64,000 nucleotides of DNA from Candidatus Buchananbacteria bacterium (GCA_013359225.1 JABWCG010000001.1:432916-496915), one strand, 5' to 3'; positions 30,001-59,222 are shown, numbered from the stretch's first letter. A program made the numbers and translations. Notes: generated by a model from the letters alone, not told the origin.

Positions 30001-30064
30001 GCCCGGCATCATGAGTTACAGCCTGCCTTTGTTCGTCATTTAAACTTTTAAGATTAATTTCCAT
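27023..30064 (-). CDS. UvrD/PcrA-family helicase fused to a C-terminal Cys-containing PD-(D/E)xK (RecB/Cas4-like) nuclease
   Basis: 1013 aa. The Walker A reads AGAGTGKTT, and UvrD helicase motifs I-VI are present. The C-terminus has CPYHYW, GKIDRVD, ELIDYKTG, QLLIYQLA and a terminal CTC cysteine cluster. Confidence 0.88.
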   Translation of the reverse strand: MEINLKSLNDEQRQAVTHDAGPLLIVAGAGTGKTTVITQRIGWLIEQEKAKADEVLALTFTEKAATEMAERVDRLLPYGYVDLWILTFHAFAEKILQQHALEIGVPNDFKMLNQTEQWMLIRQNLDKFELDFYKPLGNPTKFIHALIKLFSRAKDEVISAQDYLEYAKNLQLNADGADFIKDFLSQDEIKTLSKQERKELVAQEIKKVQEVANAYHVYQQLLLENNALDFGDLINYCLKLFKTRPAVLAKYRQKFKYILVDEFQDTNYAQYELVKLLAEPNQNITVVGDDDQSIYKFRGASVSNILEFKKDYKNSKEVFLTKNYRSTQNILDLSYSFIQQNNPNRLEVKLAKNKKAPAALTKKLISQNKEKGEICHFHFETADDEVRAVLKHIADLKEKNPDASWGDFAILARTNEVANFFSQALSQTQIPYRFVASRGLYLKPVVLDILAYLRLLDDYHESSAVYRILNSPIVGLPDRTIVQLNYWARRKGYSLFATIQQPEVVRQADMDTRSKIQKFLGLVERHTQIARDRSVTEVVMAFLEDSGYLQHMTKDENAEMIQTTAYLNQFYKRINDFEQSAQDPSVKNFLELMNLELEAGQTGDLEQNMDEGPDAVKVMTIHAAKGLEFQYVWVVTMVDRRFPTDNRPDPISLPDSLVKEILPQGDVHLQEERRLFYVAMTRAKSGLYLTSASDYGGSRQKKISRFLAELATLGLPLDQPEEKTVKHKLKLAPSASEVTVRKIESDDISYLLPKKFSFTQLNSFENCPYHYWLEYILKIPQRGKNFFSFGSSIHATLQNFFLKVKERSDVGQQDLFGSKKGLTAVKKPLVSLEELLEIYERVWIDDWYGTRREHDEYKANGRRMLKDFYQQYEKELTVPKFLETPFNLHLKDEESGEHYTLIGKIDRVDQINNGVELIDYKTGASKKQDRLEPEDKNQLLIYQLAASQHLGETVEKLTYYYLEDGTKASFIGSQKDLDNLSRKMVKTIKAILEYPWPAKKSDCTCRFNNLNNL

Positions 30065-30093
30065 GCCCCCATTTTAACATAAAAAATGATTAA

Positions 30094-30141
30094 ATAAAAA
30101 AGAGTTTAAAATAGGCCGACGCATCGACTATTTAAACTCTT
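30094..30141 (-). terminator. Rho-independent terminator of the pyrE-pyrF-microprotein operon
   Basis: An 11-bp stem AAGAGTTTAAA / TTTAAACTCTT with a 19-nt loop. On the minus strand it is followed by TTTTTTATTT. Confidence 0.5.
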
Positions 30142-30152
30142 AAGTCAAGGTT

Positions 30153-30326
30153 CTATTTCTTTTTTGCAGCCCCCAACCAGGCCACACAGTCTCGACAATA
30201 CATGCCCCCATTTGTTCGACACTTCTTACAGGCCTTAGTGTCTGGCACGATATCGCACCTATGAGGACGCCCCGGATATTTAGCCTTACCACCACCGTCA
30301 TAGTTATGGCTTGGCTTTTTGCTCAT
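30153..30326 (-). CDS. Cys-rich zinc-ribbon microprotein (57 aa); below the ORF-track length cutoff
   Basis: The translation is MSKKPSHNYDGGGKAKYPGRPHRCDIVPDTKACKKCRTNGGMYCRDCVAWLGAAKKK. Its ATG overlaps the pyrF stop in an ATGA arrangement, indicating translational coupling. A terminator follows. Confidence 0.4.
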   Translation of the reverse strand: MSKKPSHNYDGGGKAKYPGRPHRCDIVPDTKACKKCRTNGGMYCRDCVAWLGAAKKK

Positions 30327-31165
30327 GCAGTCTGCTCCAGAGCAGCATTGATTTGATCGCGTAGCTCACAGGCTCGTTGCCCGGCGACTTCCGCAAAATC
30401 AGCCTCAGACGAGGCGTGAATAATGCCTCGTGACGAATTAATGACAAACGGATATGTCCTGGCGTATCTGACGGTTTCCAGTAATTCACCTCCCTGGGAA
30501 CCAACGCCGGGAATCAGGAGCGGAATTTCCGCGGGCCGCCAAATGGGGTTGTCGGTCCCCAAAAATTTAATCTGACCCGGAAATGTTGCTCCCATCACAA
30601 ACCCAATCCGGGTACTTTCCTCGGTTTGCAATGCAGCAACTTCGTGAGCCAGATAAACGAATAACGGTTTGCCGCCGCCAACGCAGTCCTCCTGAAACTT
30701 GGCCGCGCCCTTATTGCTGGTATGCGACAAAACGTACAGTCCTTTCGCCGCGCCCCACCTCAACCACGGCGCCAATGTGTCGGTACCCAGGTAGGCATTG
30801 AGCGTCACGGCATCAGCGCCGAATCGTTCAAATGCCGCGACGGCATATTTCTCGGCCGTGTTGCCAATGTCGCCATACTTGGCGTCCAAGATAACCGGCA
30901 AGCAAACCTCCGACTGAATAAAGCTGATCAGTTTTGCCAGCTCCGGTTCGGCTTCGCAGCTTTGCCAAAAAGCCAAATTCGGTTTGTAGCAACATGCGTA
31001 CGGCGCAGTCCGCTCGACAATATCGCTTGCAAACCGGATCAACTGTTCCCGCAGACTGCCTTTGAGCACTGGCAGTTTATCAGGGTCGGGATCCAACCCA
31101 ACACAGACGCGAGTTTGGTGCTGAGCCTGAATCTCGCACAATCGGTCCAGAAAAGATATCATCAC
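30323..31165 (-). CDS. pyrF: Orotidine-5'-phosphate decarboxylase, type 2 (long, actinobacterial-like form); high GC
   Basis: 280 aa. The N-terminal RVCVGLDPDPDKL and overall length fit type-2 OMP decarboxylase. GC is about 55% against a genome background of about 40%. Confidence 0.8.
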   Translation of the reverse strand: MMISFLDRLCEIQAQHQTRVCVGLDPDPDKLPVLKGSLREQLIRFASDIVERTAPYACCYKPNLAFWQSCEAEPELAKLISFIQSEVCLPVILDAKYGDIGNTAEKYAVAAFERFGADAVTLNAYLGTDTLAPWLRWGAAKGLYVLSHTSNKGAAKFQEDCVGGGKPLFVYLAHEVAALQTEESTRIGFVMGATFPGQIKFLGTDNPIWRPAEIPLLIPGVGSQGGELLETVRYARTYPFVINSSRGIIHASSEADFAEVAGQRACELRDQINAALEQTA

Positions 31166-31190
31166 GAAATCTCCTTTTTTCGTCCCGGCG

Positions 31191-31883
31191 CTAGAGTGCT
31201 AACACACCGCGCGGCACGGAACTTTGCGGATGACGCTCGTAAAACTCCTTGCCGTGACCAACCATCATATTGATCGGCACAAGATCAGCACACTGTGGGC
31301 AGGTTTCTTCCGGGTGCATCACCATCGGAATATCATACAGCGTTTCAAGAACCGGAACGCCAAGCTGTTCAGCAGTAATGCCGCCGCGGTTACAAATCAC
31401 CGCCACTCCGGCGACAATGCCACCAACCTCATTAACAGCGTTAATCGTCGCCACGGCGGAACCACCGCTGGCAAACACGTCTTCAGTCACGAGCCCGTTT
31501 TGGCCAGCGACAATTGTCGGGAAATAACGGCCGATGACACGTTCTCCCTTTTTAACACCGTCGCCTGTCTTTTCCTGGGCAAACACCCAGTTAACTTCCC
31601 GACCAGTGATCCGGCTCAGCCAACACGCTGTCGCCGCTGCCAGACCAACCGCACCATACGTCGGTCCGATCACAACGCTGATGTCGTGATCAACGAAACG
31701 CAAGGCGATGATTCGGGCGGCTGCCGAAAGCAGCCGACCGCTGGACAACAGTCGATCCTTGTCAAAGTACCCGGGAGCATGAAAATGCCCGGCGGGCTTA
31801 GGAGTTAACACGACATGGTCGTCGGTCAAAATCGCTCCTCGAGCTTTGGCAGCTTCAAGGATTTCAGCCAAACTCATCTCCAT
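31191..31883 (-). CDS. pyrE: Type I phosphoribosyltransferase, orotate PRTase-like; start at the internal Met (MEMSLAEILE) preceded by GGAGG; high GC
   Basis: The PRTase PRPP-binding motif LVTEDVFASGGS is present. It lies directly upstream of pyrF in the same orientation. There is an unusual C-terminal extension containing CPQC. Confidence 0.55.
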   Translation of the reverse strand: MEMSLAEILEAAKARGAILTDDHVVLTPKPAGHFHAPGYFDKDRLLSSGRLLSAAARIIALRFVDHDISVVIGPTYGAVGLAAATACWLSRITGREVNWVFAQEKTGDGVKKGERVIGRYFPTIVAGQNGLVTEDVFASGGSAVATINAVNEVGGIVAGVAVICNRGGITAEQLGVPVLETLYDIPMVMHPEETCPQCADLVPINMMVGHGKEFYERHPQSSVPRGVLAL

Positions 31884-32041
31884 ACGACTTTTCCTCCTGT
31901 AACCGGTTGTTTTATTCGCCAGAATAAATAGATTGGAAGGTACACAGCCCCCCAACTGCCTAATTACTTTAGTTAGTATTAAAAATAAAGTCAAGGATAA
32001 TTTTTATCTCAATTAAGCTAAAATATAGGCCTGAATCAATC

Positions 32042-46876: not shown

Positions 46877-47348
46877 TTACCGGCTAACTTCAATGTCCTG
46901 ATCGCGTTCCGGATCGCAAGAACCAACCTGGATTCTACCTGTTGCAGTTTTTCTGATATAGTAATCGGTATTTCCGGCATCAGCACCAACCGAATCTCCC
47001 AAAGGGTCAATTGGAATTGAAGCAATATATTCGTCAACTATATCAGGGGCAAGATTTAGACAAGCGCCTGCTGTAGTTTGAGCGCCACAGGCCGCATCAC
47101 AACCAATGCCATCAGTGCCCAAAACATAATAAGTGCCAACTGTTGCGCTGGCAAGTGCGTTCGGCAATGTACCGGCGTTATCAACCGTATATTTCAAAAC
47201 AGCATTCAAGATTGAATTAACTGAACTCCAACGTTCAGCATTTCTGGCTTCGGCCAATCGGCGCGCCGGATCAACGGCGACAAAAATAATGGCGGCCAAA
47301 GATAACAATCAACAGTTCAATAAGGGTAAACCCTTGATTTTTTTTCAT
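46877..47348 (-). pseudogene. Type IV major pilin gene with an apparent frameshift between the prepilin leader/N-terminus and the body
   Basis: The ATG at about 47348 encodes MKKNQGFTLIELLIVI, then reaches a stop 9 codons later. The pilin body (LAAIIFVAVDPARRLAEARNAERW... two Cys pairs ...VSR) continues in the +1 frame from 47308. Removing one T from the TTT at about 47298-47300 restores a canonical pilin. The shift coincides with the boundary of a 99-bp repeat. Confidence 0.55.
47202..47300. repeat. 99-bp segment 100% identical to 47691-47789 (pilin conserved N-terminal body region); about 123 bp with 3 mismatches when extended
   Basis: Direct comparison of the two stretches. Flanking sequence on both sides is divergent. 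Confidence 0.85.
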
Positions 47349-47362
47349 AAGGCTCCTTTTAA

Positions 47363-47788
47363 TTATCGTGAGACACGGATAGTCGGGGTTTCGCTGTTGA
47401 CCTCTTCAGCACCACAGGCGCCAACAGTTACCCGGCCACTCGGACTCTTATAAATATAATAAAATGTTTTAGTCGCACCAGCTCCCGATTCGTTTGAATC
47501 GTAAGGAATCGAAGCTAGATAGGTATCAACTAATGGTGACAGATCAATTACCGCTGTGGTGGTTGTAGCAGTCCCGCCGCCGGCAGTTTCACAGTCAGTA
47601 GCGCTCGCGCCCGTTCCAATCATATAGGTCGTACCAGCCGTCAAATTAGCCGGGGGCGCACCAGCATTATCAACCGTATATTTCAAATAGGCATTCAAGA
47701 TTGAATTAACTGAACTCCAACGTTCAGCATTTCTGGCTTCGGCCAATCGGCGCGCCGGATCAACGGCGACAAAAATAATGGCGGCCAA
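47363..47788 (-). CDS. Second pilin copy lacking the prepilin leader and first TM residues (leaderless cassette); begins at TTG, body LAAIIFVAVDPARR...
   Basis: 141-aa ORF with an identical conserved 5' segment but a divergent C-terminal variable region containing a Cys pair. No ATG, leader or Shine-Dalgarno lies upstream; the upstream sequence is ...ATGAGCTTTTAA. Confidence 0.5.
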   Translation of the reverse strand: MAAIIFVAVDPARRLAEARNAERWSSVNSILNAYLKYTVDNAGAPPANLTAGTTYMIGTGASATDCETAGGGTATTTTAVIDLSPLVDTYLASIPYDSNESGAGATKTFYYIYKSPSGRVTVGACGAEEVNSETPTIRVSR

Positions 47789-47835: not shown

Positions 47836-49662
47836 TTATTCTACAATATCAAAATAAATTCCGTATACCCATCCTTCCACCGAGGCGTCTTTAATCTTAT
47901 ACCAACCATCCGACTCCTCTACTACTTCATAAACACCCCCCACCGGCACCGAGCCAACTTTCTTAAAGCTGGTTGCCGCACCTTCCCGGACATTTAGATA
48001 ACCAACAGCATTTTCCTTAACTCTAATTTTGATTGGCTTAGTTTCATTTGAAACCCCCAAAACCTCCGGATTATTCTCAGCACTGCTTTCTGCTGCCGGC
48101 GTCGTCGTTGAAGTTTCAAACAGTTCAGTAAACGTACTAAACACCCAGCCCGAAATTTTGTCGTCCAACTTGATCTTATGCCACTCTTCACCGCGCTCTA
48201 ACAATTCGTATTCACTACCGGACTTTGCCTCTCCAACTTTACTGAATTCCGCGCCCGCGCCGTCACGAACGTTCGCATAGCCAGCACTGGTAGGCAGGAT
48301 GCGCACCATCGTTTTTGGCGCTAATGCCTCGGTGGTACTCGCCAATTCCCGCTGAATTGCCTGGTCTCGGAGCTGATCTAAAACATCAAGATTAATATCA
48401 GCCGGAACGAACTTGCCGGTGTCTGATGCAGGAGAAAAATAATTATAGAAATCCACACCTTGCTGTTTTGTTGTAATCACCGCCAACAAGCCGGCCAACA
48501 TTAAAATTAAAATCGCCAACCGGGTAAAAAATCTCTGCCAGTGTTTACGATCGCCTTTTTCAGGCAAAAATTTAAGCAGTGGATTTTTCCTTAGCGGTAG
48601 CAAATTAATGTCGCTGGTCTCTGGTTTTTTTTCAATCCCCCGCAATGCCAGCCCTAAAACATTGGAAAAAATAATTTCCTTGCCCTTAACGTTGCCTAAA
48701 GCTCCCGGATCCTTAATCTTGGCAAAAGGTTTGCCAAGATTTACCACCAAACCAAAGCTGTTGGCAAAATGCTGATCAATACTTGGCAACAAAGCCGAAC
48801 CACCAGCCAAAATAATTTCATCAACATGACGCTGAGCTTCAGCTTGATAAAATTCAATCAATTGTTTTGCTTCCCCGACAACTTTTTTAGATTCGTTTTG
48901 CAAGATAGCCACCACTTTACCGGTATCTTTTTTGGAGTCAAAACCCGTTTTAATCTTCAATTCATTGGCGCTCTTTTCAGTTATCTTTTTAGCGGCCATA
49001 ATCGCTTTAGTGAACCGGCCGCCGGCAACCTTCACCACGCCACTAGCTCTAATGCCCTGGCGATCAAAAATGGTTAGGTTAGTCGTTCGTGAACCAATAT
49101 CCATCAACAGCTTGGCCGATTTTTTATTATTAACGTCAATCAGAATACGTGCCAAACTTAATGATTCTAAATCAAAAGCAATCGGCTTTAAGCCAATTGC
49201 TTCAAGTACTTCAACGTAGGCGTCGACAACTTTTACCGGCACTGCCGCATAAAAGATTTCTTGTGACGCACCCTCAACGGTAATGGTTTTAAAATCGTAA
49301 TAAACTTCTGATGATTTAAACGGAATTACTTCTTCCGCCTTAAAGGGAATTGTATTTTTTATTTCTTTATGTTTCAGTCCGGCGGGTAATTTGAAAACTG
49401 TTGTAAAAACCTGCGAATCAGGCAACGACAGCACACAAAAAGGCGTTCTGATTTTTTGCGGTTTTGCCGAATCAAGCAATTTAACCAGACTGTCTTGAAG
49501 CTTCTTTTTATCTTTAATAATACCGTCTTTAACCAGGCTGGTTTTAAAAACTGAACGAGCGTAAGCAGTAATCTTAGGCTTACCAAAAAGCGGCTTCGTC
49601 AACTGCAAGGCCTCAATTGAATAATCTGAAATGTCCAAACCAAAAATTTCTTTTTTTACCAT
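47836..49662 (-). CDS. pilM: Type IV pilus assembly PilM-PilN-like fusion with two C-terminal SH3b-like domains; start at MVKKEIFGLDIS after AGGAGG
   Basis: The N-terminal actin-like PilM fold is present, about 350 aa. A TM segment follows (RFFTRLAILILMLAGLLAVI). Two repeats of about 60 aa close the protein (NVRDGAGAEFSKVG...GWVFSTF and NVREGAATSFKKVG...GWVYGIYF). Confidence 0.75.
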   Translation of the reverse strand: MVKKEIFGLDISDYSIEALQLTKPLFGKPKITAYARSVFKTSLVKDGIIKDKKKLQDSLVKLLDSAKPQKIRTPFCVLSLPDSQVFTTVFKLPAGLKHKEIKNTIPFKAEEVIPFKSSEVYYDFKTITVEGASQEIFYAAVPVKVVDAYVEVLEAIGLKPIAFDLESLSLARILIDVNNKKSAKLLMDIGSRTTNLTIFDRQGIRASGVVKVAGGRFTKAIMAAKKITEKSANELKIKTGFDSKKDTGKVVAILQNESKKVVGEAKQLIEFYQAEAQRHVDEIILAGGSALLPSIDQHFANSFGLVVNLGKPFAKIKDPGALGNVKGKEIIFSNVLGLALRGIEKKPETSDINLLPLRKNPLLKFLPEKGDRKHWQRFFTRLAILILMLAGLLAVITTKQQGVDFYNYFSPASDTGKFVPADINLDVLDQLRDQAIQRELASTTEALAPKTMVRILPTSAGYANVRDGAGAEFSKVGEAKSGSEYELLERGEEWHKIKLDDKISGWVFSTFTELFETSTTTPAAESSAENNPEVLGVSNETKPIKIRVKENAVGYLNVREGAATSFKKVGSVPVGGVYEVVEESDGWYKIKDASVEGWVYGIYFDIVE

Positions 49663-49669
49663 TTTGTTT

Positions 49670-50044
49670 TTATTCCTCCTGCCAAGAGATAACTGCAAGA
49701 TTGTTATCAACCTGGATTTCTATTTTTTGATGATAGGTATCAACGGTACCGGTTGCGGTTACTGTTGCTATATTACCGCTCACCTCTACCGTTAGTATAC
49801 AAGAATTCGAACCAATTGACAACGTTCCAACATAATCAACAAAATTATTGCGCAGACGCTCAAGTCCGTCTTCGATACAAGCATTGGCCAAGTTGCGAGC
49901 AATCGCTGCTTGAGTACTGCTAAAGCTAGATTGCAACTCATCAACGCCAGACAAGCTAATTGATAAACCAATCGCCAAGCCGGCAACGGCAACAATTAAA
50001 AGCGCGATCAATGCAATATATCCTTTTGGTTTAGTAGTATACAT
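49670..50044 (-). CDS. Minor pilin/pseudopilin-like protein; start at the internal Met MYTTKPKGYIALIALLIVAVAGL
   Basis: The N-terminal hydrophobic helix resembles a degenerate prepilin N-terminus. A GGAGG Shine-Dalgarno lies upstream of this Met. Confidence 0.45.
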   Translation of the reverse strand: MYTTKPKGYIALIALLIVAVAGLAIGLSISLSGVDELQSSFSSTQAAIARNLANACIEDGLERLRNNFVDYVGTLSIGSNSCILTVEVSGNIATVTATGTVDTYHQKIEIQVDNNLAVISWQEE

Positions 50045-50048
50045 TTGT

Positions 50049-50549
50049 TTATTTCCTCCCCCGCAATTCAGCAGAAAATATCGCTGTCGTACTGGCGGCA
50101 TATTCAGGCTGATTGCTTGGATTATCGTACTCCAAACGCAATGTCACGGCAACATTTTTCGTTCTGGCGTCGTATGATTGATCGGCAAAAACTCCGGTTA
50201 CCTTAACCGAGGTGTCATGAAGAATAATCAGATTACTAAAGCCGACTTGTCTGGTCAGGGTGCTGTTAGCTGTGTCAAAATGCAAAGTAATATCATCACC
50301 GGGCATAGTTAACACTAAATTGTCATCGCTAATACTAGTGATATCCTGAGCCGCCCTAATGTCTTTGGTAATAATATTTGAAATAAACCGCAACTGCTGG
50401 TTAATATCTTGACTGGTATAATTTTTAGTTTGGCCGCTTAACATGTCAAGCATTAAATAAGAAATGCTAACCAAGATAATTGAAACGATTGCCAAATACA
50501 ATATCAATTCAATTAAGGTAAACCCTGATTGTTTTTGAGACTTTTTCAT
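50049..50549 (-). CDS. Type IV pilin-like (pseudopilin) protein with the prepilin motif KQSGFTLIEL
   Basis: 166 aa. The N-terminus reads MKKSQKQSGFTLIELILYLAIVSIIL. Confidence 0.7.
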   Translation of the reverse strand: MKKSQKQSGFTLIELILYLAIVSIILVSISYLMLDMLSGQTKNYTSQDINQQLRFISNIITKDIRAAQDITSISDDNLVLTMPGDDITLHFDTANSTLTRQVGFSNLIILHDTSVKVTGVFADQSYDARTKNVAVTLRLEYDNPSNQPEYAASTTAIFSAELRGRK

Positions 50550-53500
50550 TATGGTAAATAATTTATTTTGACTGATTCAAGACTTGGCGTGTTAACCCCG
50601 TCACCCACTAATTCGGCGCGATACTGCACCCAGCGGTTGAAGTTTAAATCAGCCGGAATAATTGATCCGCCACTATTGGTAAAGTAGGTACCTGGTCCGT
50701 TGTCACCGTACCAGGCGGTCCAGCTTCCGGGAAGACCTGCCGCGTCTGGAGCCGTTCTGACTTGCATTTTAATGTCACAATCGGGATTACACGACGGCAC
50801 TGTTTCCTCCCAAGTGATGATATTAACTGATGCGTCGCCACCCATATCAAATGCCGACGATTCAAGCCAACCATTAGTTGCATACCCAGTTCCTCCAGCA
50901 CCCGCCGCCTGGCCCCAGCCGATTTGAACATTGTCCAGTTCAACAGACTGTGCACCATTGCTGGATAAAAATGCCTTAAACATAATCTGCCCCGTTGTAG
51001 TCGGAAAACTGGCAATATTAGCATTAACTTCAACAGCAGTGTTACCGGAGTTTACCGGCACTCCCGAACTGGTCCAACTGGCACCATTCCAAAACTGCCA
51101 GGTCGCGCCGTTGTCATCAGAAAGCTGATAATAAATTTCACCGCTGTTTTTATTGGCTGTTTCTGTAAATGAAGCCCACGTGTCTAAGTCCGCTACAGTC
51201 AGGGCATTTATAGGGACAATTGATGGATTTGTTGTTGAATAGCTGCCCGACTCACTAATTTGAATTGTCTTTACCCAGCCGTCAGCGCCCGGACCAGTAT
51301 AACCAACGGCCAAATAATCTGATGACAATGCGATCAGGCTTGGTGCATTAGCATTTACCGTATCAAATTCATACGTTGCAATAACTGAATCCGAGGTGTT
51401 CCCGGTGTTATCAACAGTAAACATTGCCACAAAACCGTCGTTACCGTTGCCGCGATAAGCCACGGCATAGTAATCGTCAAACCAATGAACAACGCTCGGT
51501 TCATACCCATTACTTGAATCAAACTCCAAGCTGTCAATTATCACGTTTGAAATATTACCCGCGCCATCAATCGCAAACGTTCGCACCCAGCCATCAGCGC
51601 CCGAACCGCGGTAGGCGACCGCATACACATCGCCGGCAACATGGATCAGGTCTGGCTCAAAACCGTTTGCCGTATCATACTCAAAATTATCAATTATCAA
51701 ATTGCCAATGTTACCTGAACCGTTAATAGTAAAAGTTTTCACCCAGCCGTCATCTCCCGGACCCTGATAGGCGACCGCATACACATCGCCCGCAACATGG
51801 ATCAGGTCTGGTCGACGACCATTGTTAGTATCAAACTCCAGCCGGTCAATCGTGGTATTAGAAATATTACCGCTACCGTCAATAGTAAAAGTTTTCACCC
51901 AGCCGTCATCTCCCGGACCGCGGTAGGCTACGGCGTAAACGGTCGCGGAAACCTGAACGATACTTGGTTCACGTCCATTGTTAGTATCAAACTCCAGCCG
52001 GTCAATCGTGGTATTAGAAATATTACCAAAGTTATCAATAGTCAGAGTTGCAACAAAACCGTCAGCGCCCGAACCGCGGTAGGCGACCGCATACACATCG
52101 CCCGCAACATGGATCAGGTCTGGCTCAAAACCGTTATACATGTCAAACTCCAGCTGGTCAATCGTGGTGTTAGAAATATTACCGCTACCGTCAATAGTAA
52201 AAGTTTTCACCCAGCCGTCATCTCCCGGTCCTTGATAGACGGCAGCATAAATGTTGCCAAAAATCGGCAACACCTCAACATAAAGACCCTCAGCGGTATC
52301 AAATTCTAGACTATCAATAAACGGCGAACTAAATCCGTTAACTGTTGCACCCGACGTTTTAAGCCGGGCGATCCCACTGCCAACCTCAATATTGTTTGCA
52401 TCATAAACATACTCAGCCGGCTCTAAAAAAGTCCAGTCATAGTACTGGGAACAACTGATACTGATTTCATCAAGCTGAACAAACGCCGCACCATCGCTCT
52501 CTAAAAATGCCCGAAAGATTATTTGAGCACTGGTGGTTGAAAAATTTTGGATCGCTGAATTGACCACGCTGGCCTGGTTATAATCAGCCGGACCTGCAAT
52601 CGTCCAACTGGCACCATTCCAAAACTGCCAGGTCGCGCCGTTGTCATCAGAAAGCTGATAATAAATTTCACCGCCGTTTTTATTCGCCGTTTCCGTAAAC
52701 GAAGTCCAACGATCGATACCGCTAACTAGATGACTACTGCTTGGACCAATCGTCGGGCGAGTAGTCGGATAATTTGACGACTGTTGCCAATTCAAAACAA
52801 CATTATCGTACCCAATCTGAAAGGGTCCGTTGGATGGGCCTCCGGGAGTCTCAACCCAAGCGGCAATTTTTAAATAGTATGTTCCGGCAGTTGCTAATTT
52901 TGAAGAAACATCAATATTAATTTGAGAATTCCAGCTCTGCGTCGACGTTATTTCGCCGGAAGACCAGACTTCTTGGCCAATCACCGGCGCACCGGGCGAC
53001 GAATCAACAAAAACATACAGTTTAAAAGTATTAGGTGTTGCATCATACTGGCTCACCTGCCAGTCAAAACTTACTGTTGCGCTCGGATTATTAACAGTCG
53101 TGGTAAACGACTGATACCCATAGCCCCCTACTTCGTCATTGCTACCAGCCGGGACAGTAATATACACCCAGCCTCCTGGATTACCGCCGACAGATTGCCA
53201 ACCGCCAGTAACGTCAGCCTCACCACCGCCCTGATTCCAATCAGCATACGACCAACCGGAAATATCGGTAGTAAACCCCGGATTAATAGTCAAATCAGAC
53301 ACGCCGCCAGGAGCGGAAACTAGTTGGGCAAATCCGCCGGCAATTTCAATTTCACCGGGAGTATACACATACTCGGCATCTGTGGTAAAAGACCAAACGT
53401 TTGTCCCACAACCGCCGCCGGTAAGAGGCGCCAAAGTCACCTGTCCGGCAGTGGCAACATTAACATTTCCGTCATCGCTAGCATACCGAGTATTGTCAGA

Positions 53501-54043
53501 CCAGACGGTCTGCCCGGAGGCGCCAACCCAGTTCGTTTGAATCCAATCGTCAGTCTGCCAAGTGGTCAAATAGGAAACCAGCTCAACCAAATTGCCGATG
53601 CCATTAATCGACGTATAATCAACCTGAACGGTAACTTTTTTGGTGTGCACATCAACGACTGATCCTGGATCAGCACAATCAACAATTTCACCGCCGCCAT
53701 CTCGACAAGCGTCAGCAATACTGACTGTTCTGGTATAATCATCATCAATCGCTTCGCTGGTGCCGGCAAACGTCCAATGCCCGCTTGAGTTATCAAGGCC
53801 ATGAACGCCATTCTCCAATAAATTCCAAGCTTGTCGCCTAATTGACCACGCTGCTTCAATACCTTCCTGGGCATGAAGCAATGCCACATCACGCTGGCTC
53901 GCTTGGACATCGCTGCCATACGAACTCATTAATAAACCGATTAATGCCGTTGCAAATAAACCAAAAAGCGCGACGGCCAGTATTACTTCCACCAAACCGA
54001 CACCTTTGGAATAAAATTTTTGACGGCTAATTTGGGGCATCAA
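50549..54043 (-). CDS. Giant pilin-like protein (1164 aa): prepilin-type N-terminus, two BNR/Asp-box modules, and about 7 repeats of 47 aa predicted to form a beta-propeller; putative pilus tip adhesin
   Basis: The N-terminus reads KGVGLVEVILAVALFGLFATAL. The module TWASFTETANKNGGEIYYQLSDDNGATWQFWNGASWT occurs twice. The unit YAVAYRGPGDDGWVKTFTIDGSGNISNTTIDRLEFDTNNGR.PDLIHVAGDV recurs at least 6 times. Confidence 0.8.
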   Translation of the reverse strand: MMPQISRQKFYSKGVGLVEVILAVALFGLFATALIGLLMSSYGSDVQASQRDVALLHAQEGIEAAWSIRRQAWNLLENGVHGLDNSSGHWTFAGTSEAIDDDYTRTVSIADACRDGGGEIVDCADPGSVVDVHTKKVTVQVDYTSINGIGNLVELVSYLTTWQTDDWIQTNWVGASGQTVWSDNTRYASDDGNVNVATAGQVTLAPLTGGGCGTNVWSFTTDAEYVYTPGEIEIAGGFAQLVSAPGGVSDLTINPGFTTDISGWSYADWNQGGGEADVTGGWQSVGGNPGGWVYITVPAGSNDEVGGYGYQSFTTTVNNPSATVSFDWQVSQYDATPNTFKLYVFVDSSPGAPVIGQEVWSSGEITSTQSWNSQINIDVSSKLATAGTYYLKIAAWVETPGGPSNGPFQIGYDNVVLNWQQSSNYPTTRPTIGPSSSHLVSGIDRWTSFTETANKNGGEIYYQLSDDNGATWQFWNGASWTIAGPADYNQASVVNSAIQNFSTTSAQIIFRAFLESDGAAFVQLDEISISCSQYYDWTFLEPAEYVYDANNIEVGSGIARLKTSGATVNGFSSPFIDSLEFDTAEGLYVEVLPIFGNIYAAVYQGPGDDGWVKTFTIDGSGNISNTTIDQLEFDMYNGFEPDLIHVAGDVYAVAYRGSGADGFVATLTIDNFGNISNTTIDRLEFDTNNGREPSIVQVSATVYAVAYRGPGDDGWVKTFTIDGSGNISNTTIDRLEFDTNNGRRPDLIHVAGDVYAVAYQGPGDDGWVKTFTINGSGNIGNLIIDNFEYDTANGFEPDLIHVAGDVYAVAYRGSGADGWVRTFAIDGAGNISNVIIDSLEFDSSNGYEPSVVHWFDDYYAVAYRGNGNDGFVAMFTVDNTGNTSDSVIATYEFDTVNANAPSLIALSSDYLAVGYTGPGADGWVKTIQISESGSYSTTNPSIVPINALTVADLDTWASFTETANKNSGEIYYQLSDDNGATWQFWNGASWTSSGVPVNSGNTAVEVNANIASFPTTTGQIMFKAFLSSNGAQSVELDNVQIGWGQAAGAGGTGYATNGWLESSAFDMGGDASVNIITWEETVPSCNPDCDIKMQVRTAPDAAGLPGSWTAWYGDNGPGTYFTNSGGSIIPADLNFNRWVQYRAELVGDGVNTPSLESVKINYLP
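51440..52290. repeat. Intragenic tandem DNA repeats (about 141-bp period, near-identical copies) encoding the propeller blades of the giant pilin-like protein
   Basis: Strings such as ccgtcatctcccggaccgcggtaggc..gcatacacatcgcccgcaacatggatcaggtctgg recur. The antisense ORF 51797-52309 is a by-product of these repeats. Confidence 0.7.
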
Positions 54044-54482
54044 TAATACCTAACTCATTAATCTTAATTGTTTTGATGAACAGCGCTTCGGTACTAGTGA
54101 CAGTCACCGTGCCAGTGGCGCTTGGTGTGCCTGAATATACACTAAAGTAAATTTCAGCGCCGAACGTGGGAACAACATTAAGTGCCGGCGAGTAAGTAAT
54201 TTCCTGGTCATAATGCGGATCACGACTGACATACTCACTACCCTGAAAAATGACCATTTTATTTTGTGCTTCATCAAAATAAACCCCCCAGGGCATGCCA
54301 GTATAGCCATTAATTGATTGTAGTTGTGCTCGCCGTAAAGTTCGTTCAATATCATTAGCATAGGTTGTGACATCACCTGAAACCGAGTAAGAAAACAAAA
54401 AAGGGATGCTTAATCCGGCAACCACTAAAATTATCCCGACCGTAATCAGCATTTCAATTAAGGTAAACCCACGAAATGTCAT
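54027..54482 (-). CDS. Type IV pilin-like (pseudopilin) protein with the prepilin motif RGFTLIEM
   Basis: 151 aa. The N-terminus reads MTFRGFTLIEMLITVGIILVVAGL. Confidence 0.7.
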   Translation of the reverse strand: MTFRGFTLIEMLITVGIILVVAGLSIPFLFSYSVSGDVTTYANDIERTLRRAQLQSINGYTGMPWGVYFDEAQNKMVIFQGSEYVSRDPHYDQEITYSPALNVVPTFGAEIYFSVYSGTPSATGTVTVTSTEALFIKTIKINELGIIDAPN

Positions 54483-54495
54483 ACGGTAAATTTCA

Positions 54496-55722
54496 TCACC
54501 TCTGGAATTGAGAGGTTACTTGGTAAATTGGAGTAATGACCGATACTGCCACAAAACCGACGATCAACCCAACTGTTAAAAGCAGCGCCGGTTCAAGGAC
54601 TGTGGTCATATTCTTGGTGGCATTAGCCACTTCCTTTTCATAATAATTTGCCAAATAATTTAATGATTCATCCATCCGACCACTACGCTCGCCAACGCCA
54701 ATCATTTTAATTGCTAGCAACGAAATCAATGGTTTTCGCTTTGATTGATTCAACATACTAATAACATCAGACATCTTCTTACCTTTGCGCACTTCCGGCA
54801 ATACGTTGTTTAAAAGTTTCCGGTAAACATAATTATTGGTCGTGGTTATGGCAACTTCCAAACTACGATCAATTGTCAGTCCGCTTTTCAATAAGATAGA
54901 CAAGGTTCTGGTGATTAAAACCATATTGTAGTTAATGACCAAGTGTCCGATTACCGGTAACGCAATTAATAACCGGTGCCAGTATGGTTTTGCAAATTTC
55001 TGGGCAACCAAAATTCGCAGTGCAATTAGTGTTCCAAGCAAGCTCAGCACAATCAAACCGCCGTGCTTATCCATTAGATCAGCCGCCCAGAGTAAAATTC
55101 TGGTACTTAGCGGCAATTCAAAATTGAGCGACACAAACAGTTTTGAAATTTTCGGCAACACAAAATAAGACAACACTAGCCCTAGGCCGAAAGTAGCAAA
55201 CAATATGATCGCCGGATAAAATGAAGCGGCTTTGATGGTCCGACGTAATTCTAGACGCGACTCGAGTTCGTTTCCTAAATAATCAAGATTTTCTTCCAGG
55301 GTGCCACTTGATTCACCAACCTTAATGATGTTAACAAATAGCGGATCAAATACCTTTGGGTATTTTGCCAGTGAACCACCCAGGCTCTGACCCGATCTCA
55401 CTTTGGCTAAAACGTCTTTAATAACAGAACTAAATTTCTTCGAGGCGGTCTGCTCGGCAATTACCTCCAACGCCTCATGGAGATTAATCCCAGATTTAAT
55501 CATCGTTGATAAGTGTTTAATAAACAACACTTTATCAACCAGTGCTACCCGGCCGAAATTTAATTCAAGAATGTTTTCTTTTACTTTTCCCCGCGGAGAA
55601 ATTTTTTTTACAAACCAACCCTTACTAATCAAAATTTCTGTGGCTTCTCGAAGCGATGAGGCATCAAGAACACCTTTTTGTTCACGGTTAAGCGCATCAA
55701 AAGCACGATAACTAAATTTCAT
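54496..55722 (-). CDS. pilC: Type IV pilus platform protein PilC (GspF family); start at the internal Met MKFSYRAF
   Basis: Two T2SS-F domains with three TM helices, typical of PilC/GspF. Confidence 0.85.
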   Translation of the reverse strand: MKFSYRAFDALNREQKGVLDASSLREATEILISKGWFVKKISPRGKVKENILELNFGRVALVDKVLFIKHLSTMIKSGINLHEALEVIAEQTASKKFSSVIKDVLAKVRSGQSLGGSLAKYPKVFDPLFVNIIKVGESSGTLEENLDYLGNELESRLELRRTIKAASFYPAIILFATFGLGLVLSYFVLPKISKLFVSLNFELPLSTRILLWAADLMDKHGGLIVLSLLGTLIALRILVAQKFAKPYWHRLLIALPVIGHLVINYNMVLITRTLSILLKSGLTIDRSLEVAITTTNNYVYRKLLNNVLPEVRKGKKMSDVISMLNQSKRKPLISLLAIKMIGVGERSGRMDESLNYLANYYEKEVANATKNMTTVLEPALLLTVGLIVGFVAVSVITPIYQVTSQFQR

Positions 55723-55732
55723 ATTTTTATTT

Positions 55733-57415
55733 TTATTCTCTGGTAGCGCGAAGAACTTCTTCAATGGTCGTAAGACCGGACAAAACTTTTTTAATGCCGT
55801 CATCAATCATGGTTTTCATTCCTTCAGTGATCGCTTGTTGCTTGATTTGATCGGCGTTGGCGCGCTTCATAATTAAATCTCTGATTGCTTCTGACATTAC
55901 CAAAATTTCACAAATTGCCACTCGACCCCGATAACCGGTTTGACCGCATAATTCGCACCCCTTACCGCGATAGATCCGAAATTCTTTATTTTCGGTTCCA
56001 AAATGTTTATCGATTAATTCTCGGGAAAAATGTTGTGCTAGTTGTTCCGTGGTCACTTTTTCACTCACAATACAATTTGAACAAATCCGGCGGACTAAGC
56101 GCTGAGCAATAATAATATTAACCGTTGAGGCAATTAAAAATGGCTCGATCCCCATCTTTAAAAATCGCGGTAGCGCCGTCGCCGCGTCATTGGTATGCAA
56201 TGTCGACAACACCAAGTGCCCGGTCATCGCCGAATTAATAGCGATATCGGCTGTTTCCTGATCACGGATTTCACCGACCATAATAATATCCGGATCTTGC
56301 CGTAATAAAGACCGCAACCCTTGGGCAAACGTTAAATTGGTTTTCGGATTAACCTGGACTTGGTTGACCCCCTCAATATCATACTCCACCGGATCCTCAA
56401 TCGTCGCAATGTTAACTTCCCGACGATTCAAATTTTTTAATACGGCGTACAATGTTGTGGTTTTACCTGAGCCGGTCGGGCCAGTTGCTAAAATTGCCCC
56501 GTACGGCTTTGCATATTCTTTTTTCAGTTTTACCAAATCTTCATTACTAAAACCCAAATCCTCCAGACTTAGCTGGCGAGATTTTTCTGACAACAAACGC
56601 AATACCACTTTTTCTCCTTCAACCACCGGGATAATAGAAACACGGATATCCAAATTTTCCGCCTCAAACTTCATTCTGATTTTACCGTCCTGAGCGCTAC
56701 GGTGTTCATCAGTTCGCAACTGGGACATGATTTTAATCCTGGTCACCACTAATTCATGAAAACTTTTTGGCAAATCAATAATGTCGTGCAAAATCCCATC
56801 GATGCGAAAACGTACCAGCGTTTTTTCTTCCATCGGTTCAATATGGATATCTGACGCCTTATTCTCATAGGCATATTGCAAGATAGTGTCCACAATTTTA
56901 ATAATTGGTACATCTTCCGCCTTAGCACCGCCGGTGGCCTGTGAAATATTTTCTTGAATAATATCAGCAAATTCTTTCTTAAGTCCTTTTTGATATTTCG
57001 GCAAAGTGTTTTCAATATTTTGCCAAGTAGTGTAATAAGGAATCACTCGCTGGCCGGTTTTTTTCTCCACTAAATTGATCGCTCGCAAATCACTGGGGTT
57101 AACCATAGCCAACTTGATAGTATCTCGGTCGCGCTCAAAGGCAATGACTTTTTGATTTTTAGCCATGACGCGCGGAATCAAATTTAATACTTCCGGGTCA
57201 ATTGGCTGACGATCCAAGTCAACAAAGTCAAACCCCAATTGTCCGGCTACCACCTGGCCCAGATGATCATCGGAAATCAAGTCGCTTGCCACCAACACTT
57301 CGCCAAGCGACTTATTGTTTTGCTCCGCAAAGCGATATGCCGCGTCTAGCCGCTCTTTTGGAATTAAATCCAATTCTTCAACCAGCAATTTTAAACGCTC
57401 GTTGGTTACTTTCAT
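55733..57415 (-). CDS. pilB: Type IV pilus assembly ATPase PilB (GspE family)
   Basis: 560 aa. The Walker A reads GPTGSGKTTT. The Asp and His boxes are present, and the tetracysteine motif (CSNC...CELC) is present. Confidence 0.93.
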   Translation of the reverse strand: MKVTNERLKLLVEELDLIPKERLDAAYRFAEQNNKSLGEVLVASDLISDDHLGQVVAGQLGFDFVDLDRQPIDPEVLNLIPRVMAKNQKVIAFERDRDTIKLAMVNPSDLRAINLVEKKTGQRVIPYYTTWQNIENTLPKYQKGLKKEFADIIQENISQATGGAKAEDVPIIKIVDTILQYAYENKASDIHIEPMEEKTLVRFRIDGILHDIIDLPKSFHELVVTRIKIMSQLRTDEHRSAQDGKIRMKFEAENLDIRVSIIPVVEGEKVVLRLLSEKSRQLSLEDLGFSNEDLVKLKKEYAKPYGAILATGPTGSGKTTTLYAVLKNLNRREVNIATIEDPVEYDIEGVNQVQVNPKTNLTFAQGLRSLLRQDPDIIMVGEIRDQETADIAINSAMTGHLVLSTLHTNDAATALPRFLKMGIEPFLIASTVNIIIAQRLVRRICSNCIVSEKVTTEQLAQHFSRELIDKHFGTENKEFRIYRGKGCELCGQTGYRGRVAICEILVMSEAIRDLIMKRANADQIKQQAITEGMKTMIDDGIKKVLSGLTTIEEVLRATRE

Positions 57416-57795
57416 TATTTCTTTGGTAAAAGTTTGTTTAATTTATCAACCACGTCATCAAGACTTAAATCACTTTTTACAATGTAATCCAACACCCCCA
57501 ATTTACGACCCTGCTGCATATCTTCGGGTTGGCCCAAGTTGGACAAAATTACCACCGGGATTTTGTTGGTTATCTCCTGATTTTTTAATGATTCTAACAC
57601 CTCAAAACCGTCTATATCCGGCAACATAATATCCAATAAGATTAAGTCAGGATTTTCTGAAGCTGCCTTAGTTAACCCTTCTTTGCCGCTACTGGCAATT
57701 GAAATTTGATAGTTGCTTGCTTCAAGCATTTTGGAGAGCATTTTCCCCAAAAATTTATCATCTTCAACGATAAGAACTTTTTTTCCGGTAGCCAT
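57415..57795 (-). CDS. CheY-like single-domain response regulator; start at MATGKKVLIVEDD
   Basis: The receiver domain has the conserved DD...D...K pattern (phospho-acceptor within ILLDIMLPDIDG). Its stop overlaps the pilB start. Confidence 0.8.
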   Translation of the reverse strand: MATGKKVLIVEDDKFLGKMLSKMLEASNYQISIASSGKEGLTKAASENPDLILLDIMLPDIDGFEVLESLKNQEITNKIPVVILSNLGQPEDMQQGRKLGVLDYIVKSDLSLDDVVDKLNKLLPKK

Positions 57796-57858
57796 GAATA
57801 CAAAATAATTATTAATAACTATATTATACCACATTTCTTAGTCCATTACTATCAGATA

Positions 57859-57887: not shown

Positions 57888-57982
57888 ACAATGATACCGT
57901 CTGAAACAGGAGTAAGGCGGTATTATTGCGGAATTGGTCCGCAAAGGTCCACAACTCACAATAAAGAAGGAGAGCAGGACAC

Positions 57983-59140
57983 ATGTTTGGAAAACGCGGT
58001 TTTTTCGGATTCGGACGTCAGGACGATAATTCGGGTGCCGGCAACAACGTTGAACCTTGCGCCATATGCGGCGTGGTCCACGAAAACCCGGTGACGGCGA
58101 ATGAGATGAAAGGCATGGGCATGCTTCCGGGCCTGCTGGGCGCACTGCTGAGCGGCGGGCTTGGCGGTGGCATCCCCGGAGTCGATGTCGAAACCACCAC
58201 GGTGATGATCAACCCCAAAACCGGCGAAGTCAAGACCCTGACGCGCGGCTCGCGCCTGGAAGAAGTCGACCTTTCGGCGTTCGATCCGGACGTGATCCGG
58301 CAACTCGAAGAGGTGGCCAATTTCGACCGCCTCGTCGACGAGAAGTCCAGCAAGGCATCCGAGCTACGGCGCGAAGTCTCCCTGTTGGAGCGTAACCTCC
58401 GTCGCGCCGAAACCCGCCTCAAGCATTCGCTCTGGGGCCAGGTCGACGGACGCTACTATGGCGACGACCAGCTCGAGATCGGGCGTGAAGGCGAAGAAAC
58501 GGTTCGCATCAGCCGCCGCGGCGACCACATCTGCATCGTGGAGGGCGAACTGGGTCAGCAACTGATGTCCCAGCAAGACGCCATCGAACAGATGAGTGGC
58601 ACCATCCGCGACAAGAACCGCGAAGCCGAAACCCTGGAGCGCGAGGCCAAGCACCAACCGGAGCTGGCGAGGGTGATGCATGAAGAGGCCACAGAGGCGC
58701 TGTTCAACTACCTGCGCCAGACCGGCAACCGCGAGCTGATGCGTCAGCTCATGACCGACCGCGCGTTCCTCCACGTCGACGAAACCGGCAAGCTCGGCAT
58801 CTCTGCGATGGTCGACATCAACGAGCAGACCGACGGCGTGCCCGAGGAAATCCGCGACATGATGGCCGTGATGCAGAAGCATCACCCCAGCGGTCGCGCG
58901 CTACCCCCCGCCGTGGCCAAGCTTCTCGGCCTGAATACTCCCGAACTGCCGCCGGTGTCGGATGAACTGCCGGTCGGACCCATCACCTCTCCCGACGCCA
59001 TCAGCGACGAAGGCGCGGCCGCCGAAAACAACGGCAAAGACGTGGTTCCTCCCGGAACCTTCATGGCCGACGAACCCGTCCTGGTCGCGGCCAACGAACC
59101 GCCCCTGGGCGACCCCGACGGCGGCAAACTCGGCGACTAG
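57983..59140 (+). CDS. Hypothetical protein (385 aa) of strongly foreign composition (about 62% GC): Gly-rich N-terminus with a CAICG motif, central charged coiled-coil-like region, Pro/Asp-rich acidic tail
   Basis: A single long ORF with GC3-rich codons (GGC, CTG, GAC, CGC). All overlapping opposite-strand ORFs are stop-poor artefacts of the high GC. A native promoter, a Shine-Dalgarno and a downstream terminator flank it. Confidence 0.6.
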   Translation: MFGKRGFFGFGRQDDNSGAGNNVEPCAICGVVHENPVTANEMKGMGMLPGLLGALLSGGLGGGIPGVDVETTTVMINPKTGEVKTLTRGSRLEEVDLSAFDPDVIRQLEEVANFDRLVDEKSSKASELRREVSLLERNLRRAETRLKHSLWGQVDGRYYGDDQLEIGREGEETVRISRRGDHICIVEGELGQQLMSQQDAIEQMSGTIRDKNREAETLEREAKHQPELARVMHEEATEALFNYLRQTGNRELMRQLMTDRAFLHVDETGKLGISAMVDINEQTDGVPEEIRDMMAVMQKHHPSGRALPPAVAKLLGLNTPELPPVSDELPVGPITSPDAISDEGAAAENNGKDVVPPGTFMADEPVLVAANEPPLGDPDGGKLGD

Positions 59141-59175
59141 TCTAACAGTCGCCTCCATCGTACCTTAACCCCCAC

Positions 59176-59222
59176 GCACCAAGTCATTTCCTCTCTGGAA
59201 AAGACCTGGTGCTCTTTTTTTT
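59176..59222 (+). terminator. Rho-independent terminator after the high-GC gene
   Basis: Stem GCACCAAGTC / GACCTGGTGC (one mismatch) with a 17-nt loop, followed by T9. Confidence 0.5.

Follow-up and report, generated by a model that had tools for sequence, protein, structure and literature searches.

A giant modular minor pilin as a candidate pilus-tip adhesin in Candidatus Buchananbacteria

The genome of a Candidatus Buchananbacteria bacterium (GCA_013359225.1) carries, within the 64,000 nt stretch JABWCG010000001.1:432916-496915 (hereafter the window), a type IV pilus operon with an intact open reading frame (ORF) of 1164 codons among its minor-pilin genes. Judging from structure models and from analogy to characterised pilins, we consider it rather probable that the product, here called the giant, is a modular type IV minor pilin displayed at the pilus tip, acting as a probably glycan-binding adhesin for attachment to a host or surface. 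Direct support comes from a class III-type N-terminus, a pilin-like secondary structure, the I position of the gene, predicted folds resembling carbohydrate-binding modules (CBM) and propellers, and the exchange of cargo domains at fixed slots among relatives.

A large part of bacterial diversity belongs to the Patescibacteria, and almost every member in culture lives attached to other microbes. Knowledge of how they choose and hold their hosts comes largely from one Saccharibacteria model. The family described here provides a sequence-defined candidate for the host-binding tip of a pilus in a different, uncultured lineage. A fixed pilin carrier with exchangeable heads would make specificity predictable and testable. 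Even if the adhesin reading is wrong, the protein represents an extreme modular pilin with ~1000 amino acids (aa) in five modules on a GspI-sized carrier.

A prepilin-type N-terminus in the I position

The ORF spans 50549-54043 on the minus strand, as an earlier note made from the sequence alone had already proposed. Its 1164 codons are counted from a TTG. An ATG follows as codon 2 at 54040, within the final codons of the upstream gene, and the product thus probably comprises 1163 aa. The stop codon and the start of the next gene overlap, and the genes are thus packed as an operon. Residue numbers given here refer to the 1164-codon ORF; those of the AlphaFold models and alignments are one lower.

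The N-terminus consists of MMPQISRQKFYSKG followed by VGLVEVILAVALFGLFATALIGLL, with Gly at position -1, Glu at +5 and ~24 hydrophobic residues. Hence the putative cleavage site reads SKG before VGLVEVILAVALFGLFATALIGLL, and basic leader, Gly, Glu+5 and hydrophobic stretch are all found in the arrangement of a class III signal. Over 87 relatives the consensus is [K/R]G ahead of the cleavage site and [F/Q/V/A]S[L/I][V/L]E[V/L]I.A.A.F.L behind it, whereby Gly-1 and Glu+5 are conserved to at least 90%. The prepilin-type start postulated before is largely kept in these relatives. A Sec-type signal peptide, named in the earlier note as a finding that would overturn this assignment, is judged unlikely given the conserved Gly-1/Glu+5, the helix and the I position.

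ComGE, PilV, XpsI and GspI count as counterparts, being the I minor (pseudo)pilins found in type IVa and competence pili and in type II secretion. Among 22 relatives searched against NCBIfam, ComGE was matched by 15, PilV by 11, XpsI by nine and GspI by seven (best E 5e-7 to 2e-5), all of these matches being sub-threshold and mostly derived from the N-terminal helix. TIGR02532 was matched by 10 of the 22 (best E 7.6e-6), and precomputed PF07963 matches are present on several relatives. The full AlphaFold2 (AF2) model, based on an 87-sequence alignment, predicts a helix at residues 15-70 (56 residues) followed by strands at 78-168, with a predicted local distance difference test score (pLDDT) >90 from about residue 50. 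H-like and J-like minor-pilin genes lie on either side of the giant gene, which places it in the I position, the second of an H-I-J-K block beside the assembly genes. Gene order and Glu+5 are shared with GspI, PilV and ComGE, and at family level the N-terminus shows profile similarity to them below the curated cut-offs. In contrast to these single-domain proteins of ~100-190 aa without extra domains, only the first ~170 of the 1164 residues form the pilin module. Taken together, sequence profiles and the model suggest that the N-terminal 170 residues are a prepilin-type pilin module of the GspI/PilV/ComGE class, which we hold as probable as the interpretation of which it is part.

Jelly roll and Asp-box modules

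Five beta-rich modules of ~1000 residues in total are grafted onto the pilin module (Table 1). With a CBM-like jelly roll and a seven-bladed propeller behind the pilin part, the giant shows the extra modules that characterise modular pilins. None of its modules reaches the threshold of any Pfam or NCBIfam model. In sequence searches of the PDB neither the protein nor the family profile retrieved anything useful, the sole matches being to the N-terminal helix of geopilin (E 0.12-0.38).

The two Asp-box modules C1 and C2 are ~110 aa each, share 58% identity (E 1e-43) and contain one exact SDDNGATW apiece; for C1 the W, F, G and Q positions are invariant in the family. They match DUF5643 weakly (E 9e-6, under cut-off). 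The two modules with SDDNGATWQ had been described before as BNR/sialidase-like. The motif itself holds in both copies as SDDNGATW, but the label is misleading: Pfam BNR reaches only 13.7 bits (E 0.062) on the giant, and a single Asp-box occurs per beta-rich, non-propeller module while the propeller blades have none. A BNR/sialidase propeller was hence rejected.

A seven-bladed propeller of 52-aa repeats

Tandem Repeats Finder reports a period of 156 nt with 4.7 copies (score 535) for the tandem repeat. At the protein level this corresponds to seven exact units of 52 aa at residues 575-938 with pairwise identities of 37-77%, which replaces the previous estimate of ~47 aa. In the full-length AF2 run this region stays below a pLDDT of 50, because few relatives carry the propeller. 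A dedicated alignment of 99 sequences yielded a model with pLDDT 96 and a predicted template modelling score of 0.93, in which 28 strands form seven four-stranded blades. The structure prediction suggested in the earlier note thus returned the expected fold. As to the comparison of repeat numbers between strains proposed there, the closed fold holds the count at seven, and what varies between genomes is the cargo domain of the slot.

The propeller as sole query retrieved 421 relatives. Exhaustive HMMER searching extended this to 1723 cluster representatives at E <=1e-3, of which 737 are at <=1e-30 (clusters defined at 50% identity). No convincing Pfam annotation was found among the propeller relatives. 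In fold comparisons the identity is 6-16% to every propeller match and no enzyme class is preferred. This includes the propeller lectins PLL of Photorhabdus and BP39L of Burkholderia; since unrelated propellers score equally well, neither homology nor a shared sugar site can be claimed with them.

PilY1, BNR and PQQ propellers had been named for comparison, and none of them fits. There is no PQQ match in Pfam, and seven blades are found versus typically eight. The PilY1/PilC proteins of Gram-negative type IVa pili resemble the giant in being large and tip-associated, with a seven-bladed propeller, variable other domains and a function together with the core minor pilins. However, the PilY1-type propeller (PF05567/IPR008707) is C-terminal and belongs to a non-pilin protein with a Sec signal, unlike the giant. 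An RCC1 propeller was rejected as well (no RCC1 match at E <=0.1; the 52-aa repeat has its own consensus).

The same propeller (45-50% identity) occurs in proteins of ~505-520 aa, between a hydrophobic N-terminus and a short C-terminal tail (L002 8001-9548, L004 8001-9521, L083 6001-7518, L084 6001-7563). In all four distinct loci examined these proteins are encoded in the pilus operon of another lineage, in the order pilB, pilC, a 133-aa gene, a ~150-aa gene, the propeller protein, an ORF of 34-50 aa, a ~180-aa PilO/T2SSM-like gene and pilM. Of the two small genes ahead of the propeller gene, one or the other scores as pilin-like in each locus (L002: the 133-aa product with a weak N_methyl match and a 152-aa product with ComGF; L084: a 147-aa product with N_methyl). 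The operon position may point to a minor-pilin role for the ~505-aa proteins. Their assignment as K-type minor pilins, based on a likeness by eye to the 143-aa ORF of the window, was dropped (BLAST E 11; no PilX_N in Pfam). Minor-pilin blocks of type IV pili are thus a recurrent setting of the propeller family, in which it sits on different carriers.

Some side observations concern these loci. The 34-50-aa micro-ORF is conserved after each of the ~505-aa propeller proteins. The lineage appears anaerobe-like; its loci are rich in PAS kinases, and L084 contains AFOR and ferredoxin genes. The propeller also occurs in stand-alone versions of ~380 aa, one of which (L085 6001-7140, P0124; 379 aa) lies among many small unannotated ORFs by parB. 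These surroundings may represent a mobile element; a phage context found no support in PHROGs.

Family and module grammar

Searching proteins with the giant returned 171 relatives, and every source name belongs to Patescibacteria. Among species-representative genomes 78 loci were detected, belonging to Magasanikbacteria, Buchananbacteria, Falkowbacteria, Uhrbacteria, Kerfeldbacteria and metagenome-assembled genomes (MAGs) named 'Parcubacteria'; some third-party annotation records among them are evidently mislabelled as Gammaproteobacteria. In ~55 of the 78, with Magasanikbacteria, Buchananbacteria, Falkowbacteria, Kerfeldbacteria and Parcubacteria represented, the order is response regulator, pilB, pilC, H-type minor pilin, giant, J-type minor pilin, K-position gene, pilM and one to three pilin genes. 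The length of the giant ranges from 629 to 2308 aa across the loci, and the neighbouring genes keep their sizes.

BLAST against the relatives and hidden Markov models of the modules reveal a common grammar in 121 proteins: pilin module A, linker L, then n units of connector, cargo X and Asp-box module C, and finally the C-terminal domain D. The smallest members (~640 aa) are A-L-connector-B-C-D, with jelly roll B as cargo. The giant of the window is A-L-connector-B-C-connector-propeller-C-D. Cargo X may be the jelly roll, the propeller (10 of the 121 proteins) or unassigned blocks of ~110, ~210 or 335-385 aa, whereby the ~210-aa blocks coincide with proteins bearing LamG (PF13385). Exchange at a slot is well seen in P0030 (L012 7977-11483), a protein of 1167 aa with 40% identity to the giant from end to end, whose propeller slot holds an unrelated domain of 369 aa. 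The best genome match, a Magasanikbacteria MAG (L005), has two propellers.

B and C modules are also found in very large proteins without match to the pilin module (~790 to >3100 aa). These are encoded outside of pilus operons, directly after two adjacent response-regulator genes (L035, L039-L041, L043, L047, L049, L051, L053, L055, L056, L060, L061, L063, L064, L070 and L077-L079). In a Nitrospirota-labelled MAG the propeller and a B/C module occur together in one protein of 1745 aa (L044 379-5613), which may indicate modules outside Patescibacteria or a mis-binned contig.

Comparison to known modular pilins

Modular pilins have already been described as a class, for which there is direct evidence of adhesin function and to which many Patescibacteria proteins belong, including examples from Magasanikbacteria and Falkowbacteria (PMC8179133). 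In Streptococcus sanguinis PilB carries a vWA module and PilC a lectin module (Raynaud et al. 2021, PMC8179133). The giant resembles both in its small pilin module with class III signal, in the grafted binding modules with a proposed role in pilus adhesion, in the monoderm-like host and in the operon without secretin gene. Unlike them it has five extra modules (~1000 aa) instead of one, and the repeated connector-cargo-Asp-box grammar. As no module reaches a Pfam threshold, the family was probably invisible to the InterPro-based survey of modular pilins.

A further precedent is PilX2, a minor pilin of the Saccharibacterium Nanosynbacter lyticus TM7x whose RCC1 propeller has seven blades. Efficient host binding requires PilX2, whereas pilus extrusion does not, and glycans of the host wall are implicated (PMC11623550; published PMC12206443). 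Like the giant, PilX2 is the largest pilin of its locus. The two differ in propeller (RCC1 repeats, as described for PilX2, versus 52-aa repeats), in pilin type (named X-type and reported without predicted PilD signal versus I position with conserved Gly-1/Glu+5) and in lineage (Saccharibacteria versus the Buchananbacteria/Magasanikbacteria group). In the light of these examples the earlier view of giant pilin fusions as poorly characterised holds only in part: modular pilins have been described and experiments have tied PilX2 to host binding.

Hence the giant follows a known strategy, the modular type IV pilin, rather than representing a new system, and it stands outside the PilY1, sialidase/BNR, PQQ and RCC1-propeller families. 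The I-type carrier with the repeated connector-cargo-Asp-box grammar and the scale of five modules appear to be new. The same seems to apply to the 52-aa-repeat propeller, by which a large family with no Pfam model is exposed that recurs in type IV pilus operons.

Proposed function and alternatives

Based on these analogies, prepilin peptidase would cut the giant after Gly14. The cleaved protein would join the minor pilins in H, J and K position, and the complex would prime pilus assembly on PilC/PilB. The GspH-I-J-K and FimU-PilVWX complexes are the basis for this priming and tip model. Should all four minor pilins remain at the tip after priming, the giant would be located there and its ~1000-aa extension would be displayed distally. 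The grafted modules could then serve as ligand-binding heads, most likely for cell-surface glycans as fold and precedent suggest, and would attach the pilus of the Buchananbacteria cell, presumably an episymbiont, to a surface or to the cell of a host. Exchanging cargo from one lineage to another would adjust the specificity. The operon contains no secretin gene. As the Patescibacteria are commonly considered to have no outer membrane, a bulky pilin may be tolerable here, as for S. sanguinis PilB.

Several observations weigh against this interpretation. On the giant itself Pfam N_methyl (PF07963) scores 15.3 bits versus a cut-off of 21.2, and positions +1/+2 are Val-Gly versus the usual Phe-Ser/Thr. 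The I-type matches of the family stay sub-threshold, and the giant matches XpsI only (E 0.0025, far under the curated cut-off). The pilin fold is a putative one, assigned from secondary structure. Neither a PilD motif nor PilT was found within the 64-kb window. The protein is missing from a collection of 5.8 billion proteins (best match 50% identity), and an exact look-up of its sequence gave no record. Furthermore, the two adjacent major-pilin genes both appear damaged. Copy 1 (47363-47788) is a pilin body without leader or GFTLIE segment. Copy 2 (ATG at 47347, MKKNQGFTLIELLIVI…) shows a frameshifting 14-nt deletion in the codons of the hydrophobic helix relative to the intact orthologues in L006 and L007. 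Such damage may point to a defective pilus of this organism or, alternatively, to an assembly error at this place. The copies share ~100 identical nt starting at the break point, and the damage could be an assembly collapse at the repeat, silent cassettes or real decay.

The giant might be a genuine minor pilin whose ectodomain serves assembly or architecture, i.e. priming, capping, spanning of the wall or S-layer or capture of environmental polymers, with no specific adhesion to a host. Core minor pilins are primarily assembly primers, the A-L-connector-B-C-D core is kept even in the smallest members (~640 aa), suggesting a conserved structural job, and CBM-like folds also bind free polysaccharides. 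Nevertheless we regard this as unlikely, as cargo is extremely variable at fixed slots next to constant neighbours, which is typical of recognition proteins rather than scaffolds. PilX2 of TM7x, being dispensable for extrusion and needed for host binding (PMC11623550), argues in the same direction. A different possibility is that the helix remains uncleaved as a membrane anchor, and that the protein is a cell-surface adhesin outside the pilus merely encoded in its operon. The low N_methyl score, the atypical +1/+2 residues and the lack of PilD in the window would agree with this, as would PilX1 and PilX2 of TM7x, both reported without predicted PilD signals (PMC11623550). A plain anchor would not need a Gly-1 and Glu+5 conserved family-wide, however. 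The matches to I-type minor-pilin profiles and the fixed place between H- and J-type genes in ~55 genomes likewise make it quite improbable.

We attach very little probability to an enzyme, e.g. a sialidase-like glycosidase, lyase or lactonase on pilus or cell surface with catalytic Asp-box modules or propeller. The former have a single Asp-box in a non-propeller fold, the blades have none, and the fold matches of the propeller favour no enzyme class. Moreover, Pfam and NCBIfam revealed no glycosidase, sialidase, other glycoside hydrolase or further enzyme family in the giant. A DNA receptor of a Com-type competence pilus for nucleotide scavenging is similarly remote, even though the operon is comG-like with ComGD-, ComGE- and ComGF-like matches and a dependence on imported nucleotides is commonly assumed for Patescibacteria. 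With 132 D/E versus 38 K/R and an isoelectric point of 4.05 the protein is strongly acidic in all modules, which argues against binding of DNA, and its folds are CBM- or lectin-like rather than DNA-binding.

Keeping the tip adhesin as the preferred reading, a broader proposal can be made, albeit tentatively and with the odds against it as a whole. The connector-cargo-Asp-box unit might be a portable socket by which Magasanikbacteria, Buchananbacteria and Falkowbacteria exchange host-recognition domains at the pilus tip. The I-type pilin would then act as host-range determinant in the manner of a phage receptor-binding protein. The 52-aa propeller might likewise form an undescribed family of pilus-tip lectins (at least 1,700 clusters) that was recruited separately, by distinct lineages, onto different minor-pilin carriers.

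Operon and genomic surroundings

All pilus genes share the minus strand, and their ends overlap or abut. The gene content agrees with the previous placement of the giant among three pseudopilin genes and pilMCB.

Table 1. Features of the pilus operon and of the giant minor pilin in the window.
Feature	Position	Strand	Remarks	Basis
Response regulator	57415..57834	-	stand-alone, operon head	
PilB	55733..57415	-	extension ATPase (MshEN + T2SSE)	Pfam
PilC	54496..55806	-	platform protein (T2SSF x2)	Pfam
H-type minor pilin	54027..54482	-	151 aa, GFTLIE, ComGD/GspH-like	
Giant, whole gene	50549..54043	-	modular I-type (GspI/PilV/ComGE-position) minor pilin	ORF, relatives, synteny
Class III (prepilin) signal	53924..54043	-	14-aa basic leader to Gly14, Glu19 (+5), hydrophobic start of alpha1	conservation, n=87
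Pilin module A	53534..54001	-	aa 15-170, ~56-residue alpha1 helix then beta-sheet, Cys113/Cys123 pair	AF2; NCBIfam matches in family
Linker L	53402..53533	-	aa 171-214, Trp-rich, conserved, family motif DWxQTDWSGGxGQxxWSD	
Connector 1	53303..53401	-	aa 215-247, WSFTTDAEYVYTPGEIEIAGGFAQLV	
Cargo 1, jelly-roll module B	52784..53296	-	aa 250-420, beta, CBM/adhesin-like	
Asp-box module C1	52439..52771	-	aa 425-535, SDDNGATW at 465-472	
Connector 2	52346..52432	-	aa 538-566, WTFLEPAEYVYDANNIEVGSGIARLK	
Cargo 2, propeller	51230..52321	-	aa 575-938, seven-bladed beta-propeller, 7 x 52 aa	
Asp-box module C2	50909..51229	-	aa 939-1045, SDDNGATW at 975-982, weak DUF5643 match	
C-terminal domain D	50552..50896	-	aa 1050-1164, beta, family-conserved	
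J-type minor pilin	50049..50549	-	166 aa, GFTLIE, ComGF-like	
K-position small protein	49670..50101	-	124-143 aa, N-terminal hydrophobic helix, no Glu+5; likely start 50044 (124 aa)	
PilM	47836..49710	-	624 aa, fused to transmembrane/PilN-like segment and two C-terminal bacterial SH3 domains	
Major pilins	46877..47788	-	two tandem genes, both apparently 5'-damaged	

The K-position protein has no family match in Pfam or NCBIfam; its position is conserved across loci. PilM orthologues of related loci range from 343 to 720 aa. In several related genomes pilT lies divergently upstream of the same pilus operon. The remainder of the window is housekeeping (gyrB, dnaE, pheT, uvrA, uvrB and a UvrD/AddA-like helicase), and Rfam detected no RNA family in the window.

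Just upstream of the operon a 1.2-kb island (~57950-59200) with sharp edges stands out by 60-66% GC versus ~41% in the genome. Its extent is precisely that of a 385-aa ORF (57983-59140, plus strand), opposite to the strand of the operon, for which neither a Pfam nor a plasmid match was found. Its sole match among the 5.8 billion proteins is itself, the hypothetical protein HUU49_02610 of a Candidatus Buchananbacteria MAG (100% identity). It is thus an orphan gene of foreign composition. This gene, ~4 kb upstream of the giant, is in the collection by way of NCBI, unlike the giant itself, which may have been missed in gene calling or marked as a pseudogene in public data. GC is also raised (0.515 versus ~0.41) at 30000-32000, over a gene for orotidine monophosphate decarboxylase (30323-31165) and one resembling phosphoribosyltransferases (31191-31994; weak match under the cut-off). 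This second patch may reflect horizontal acquisition of genes for pyrimidine synthesis.

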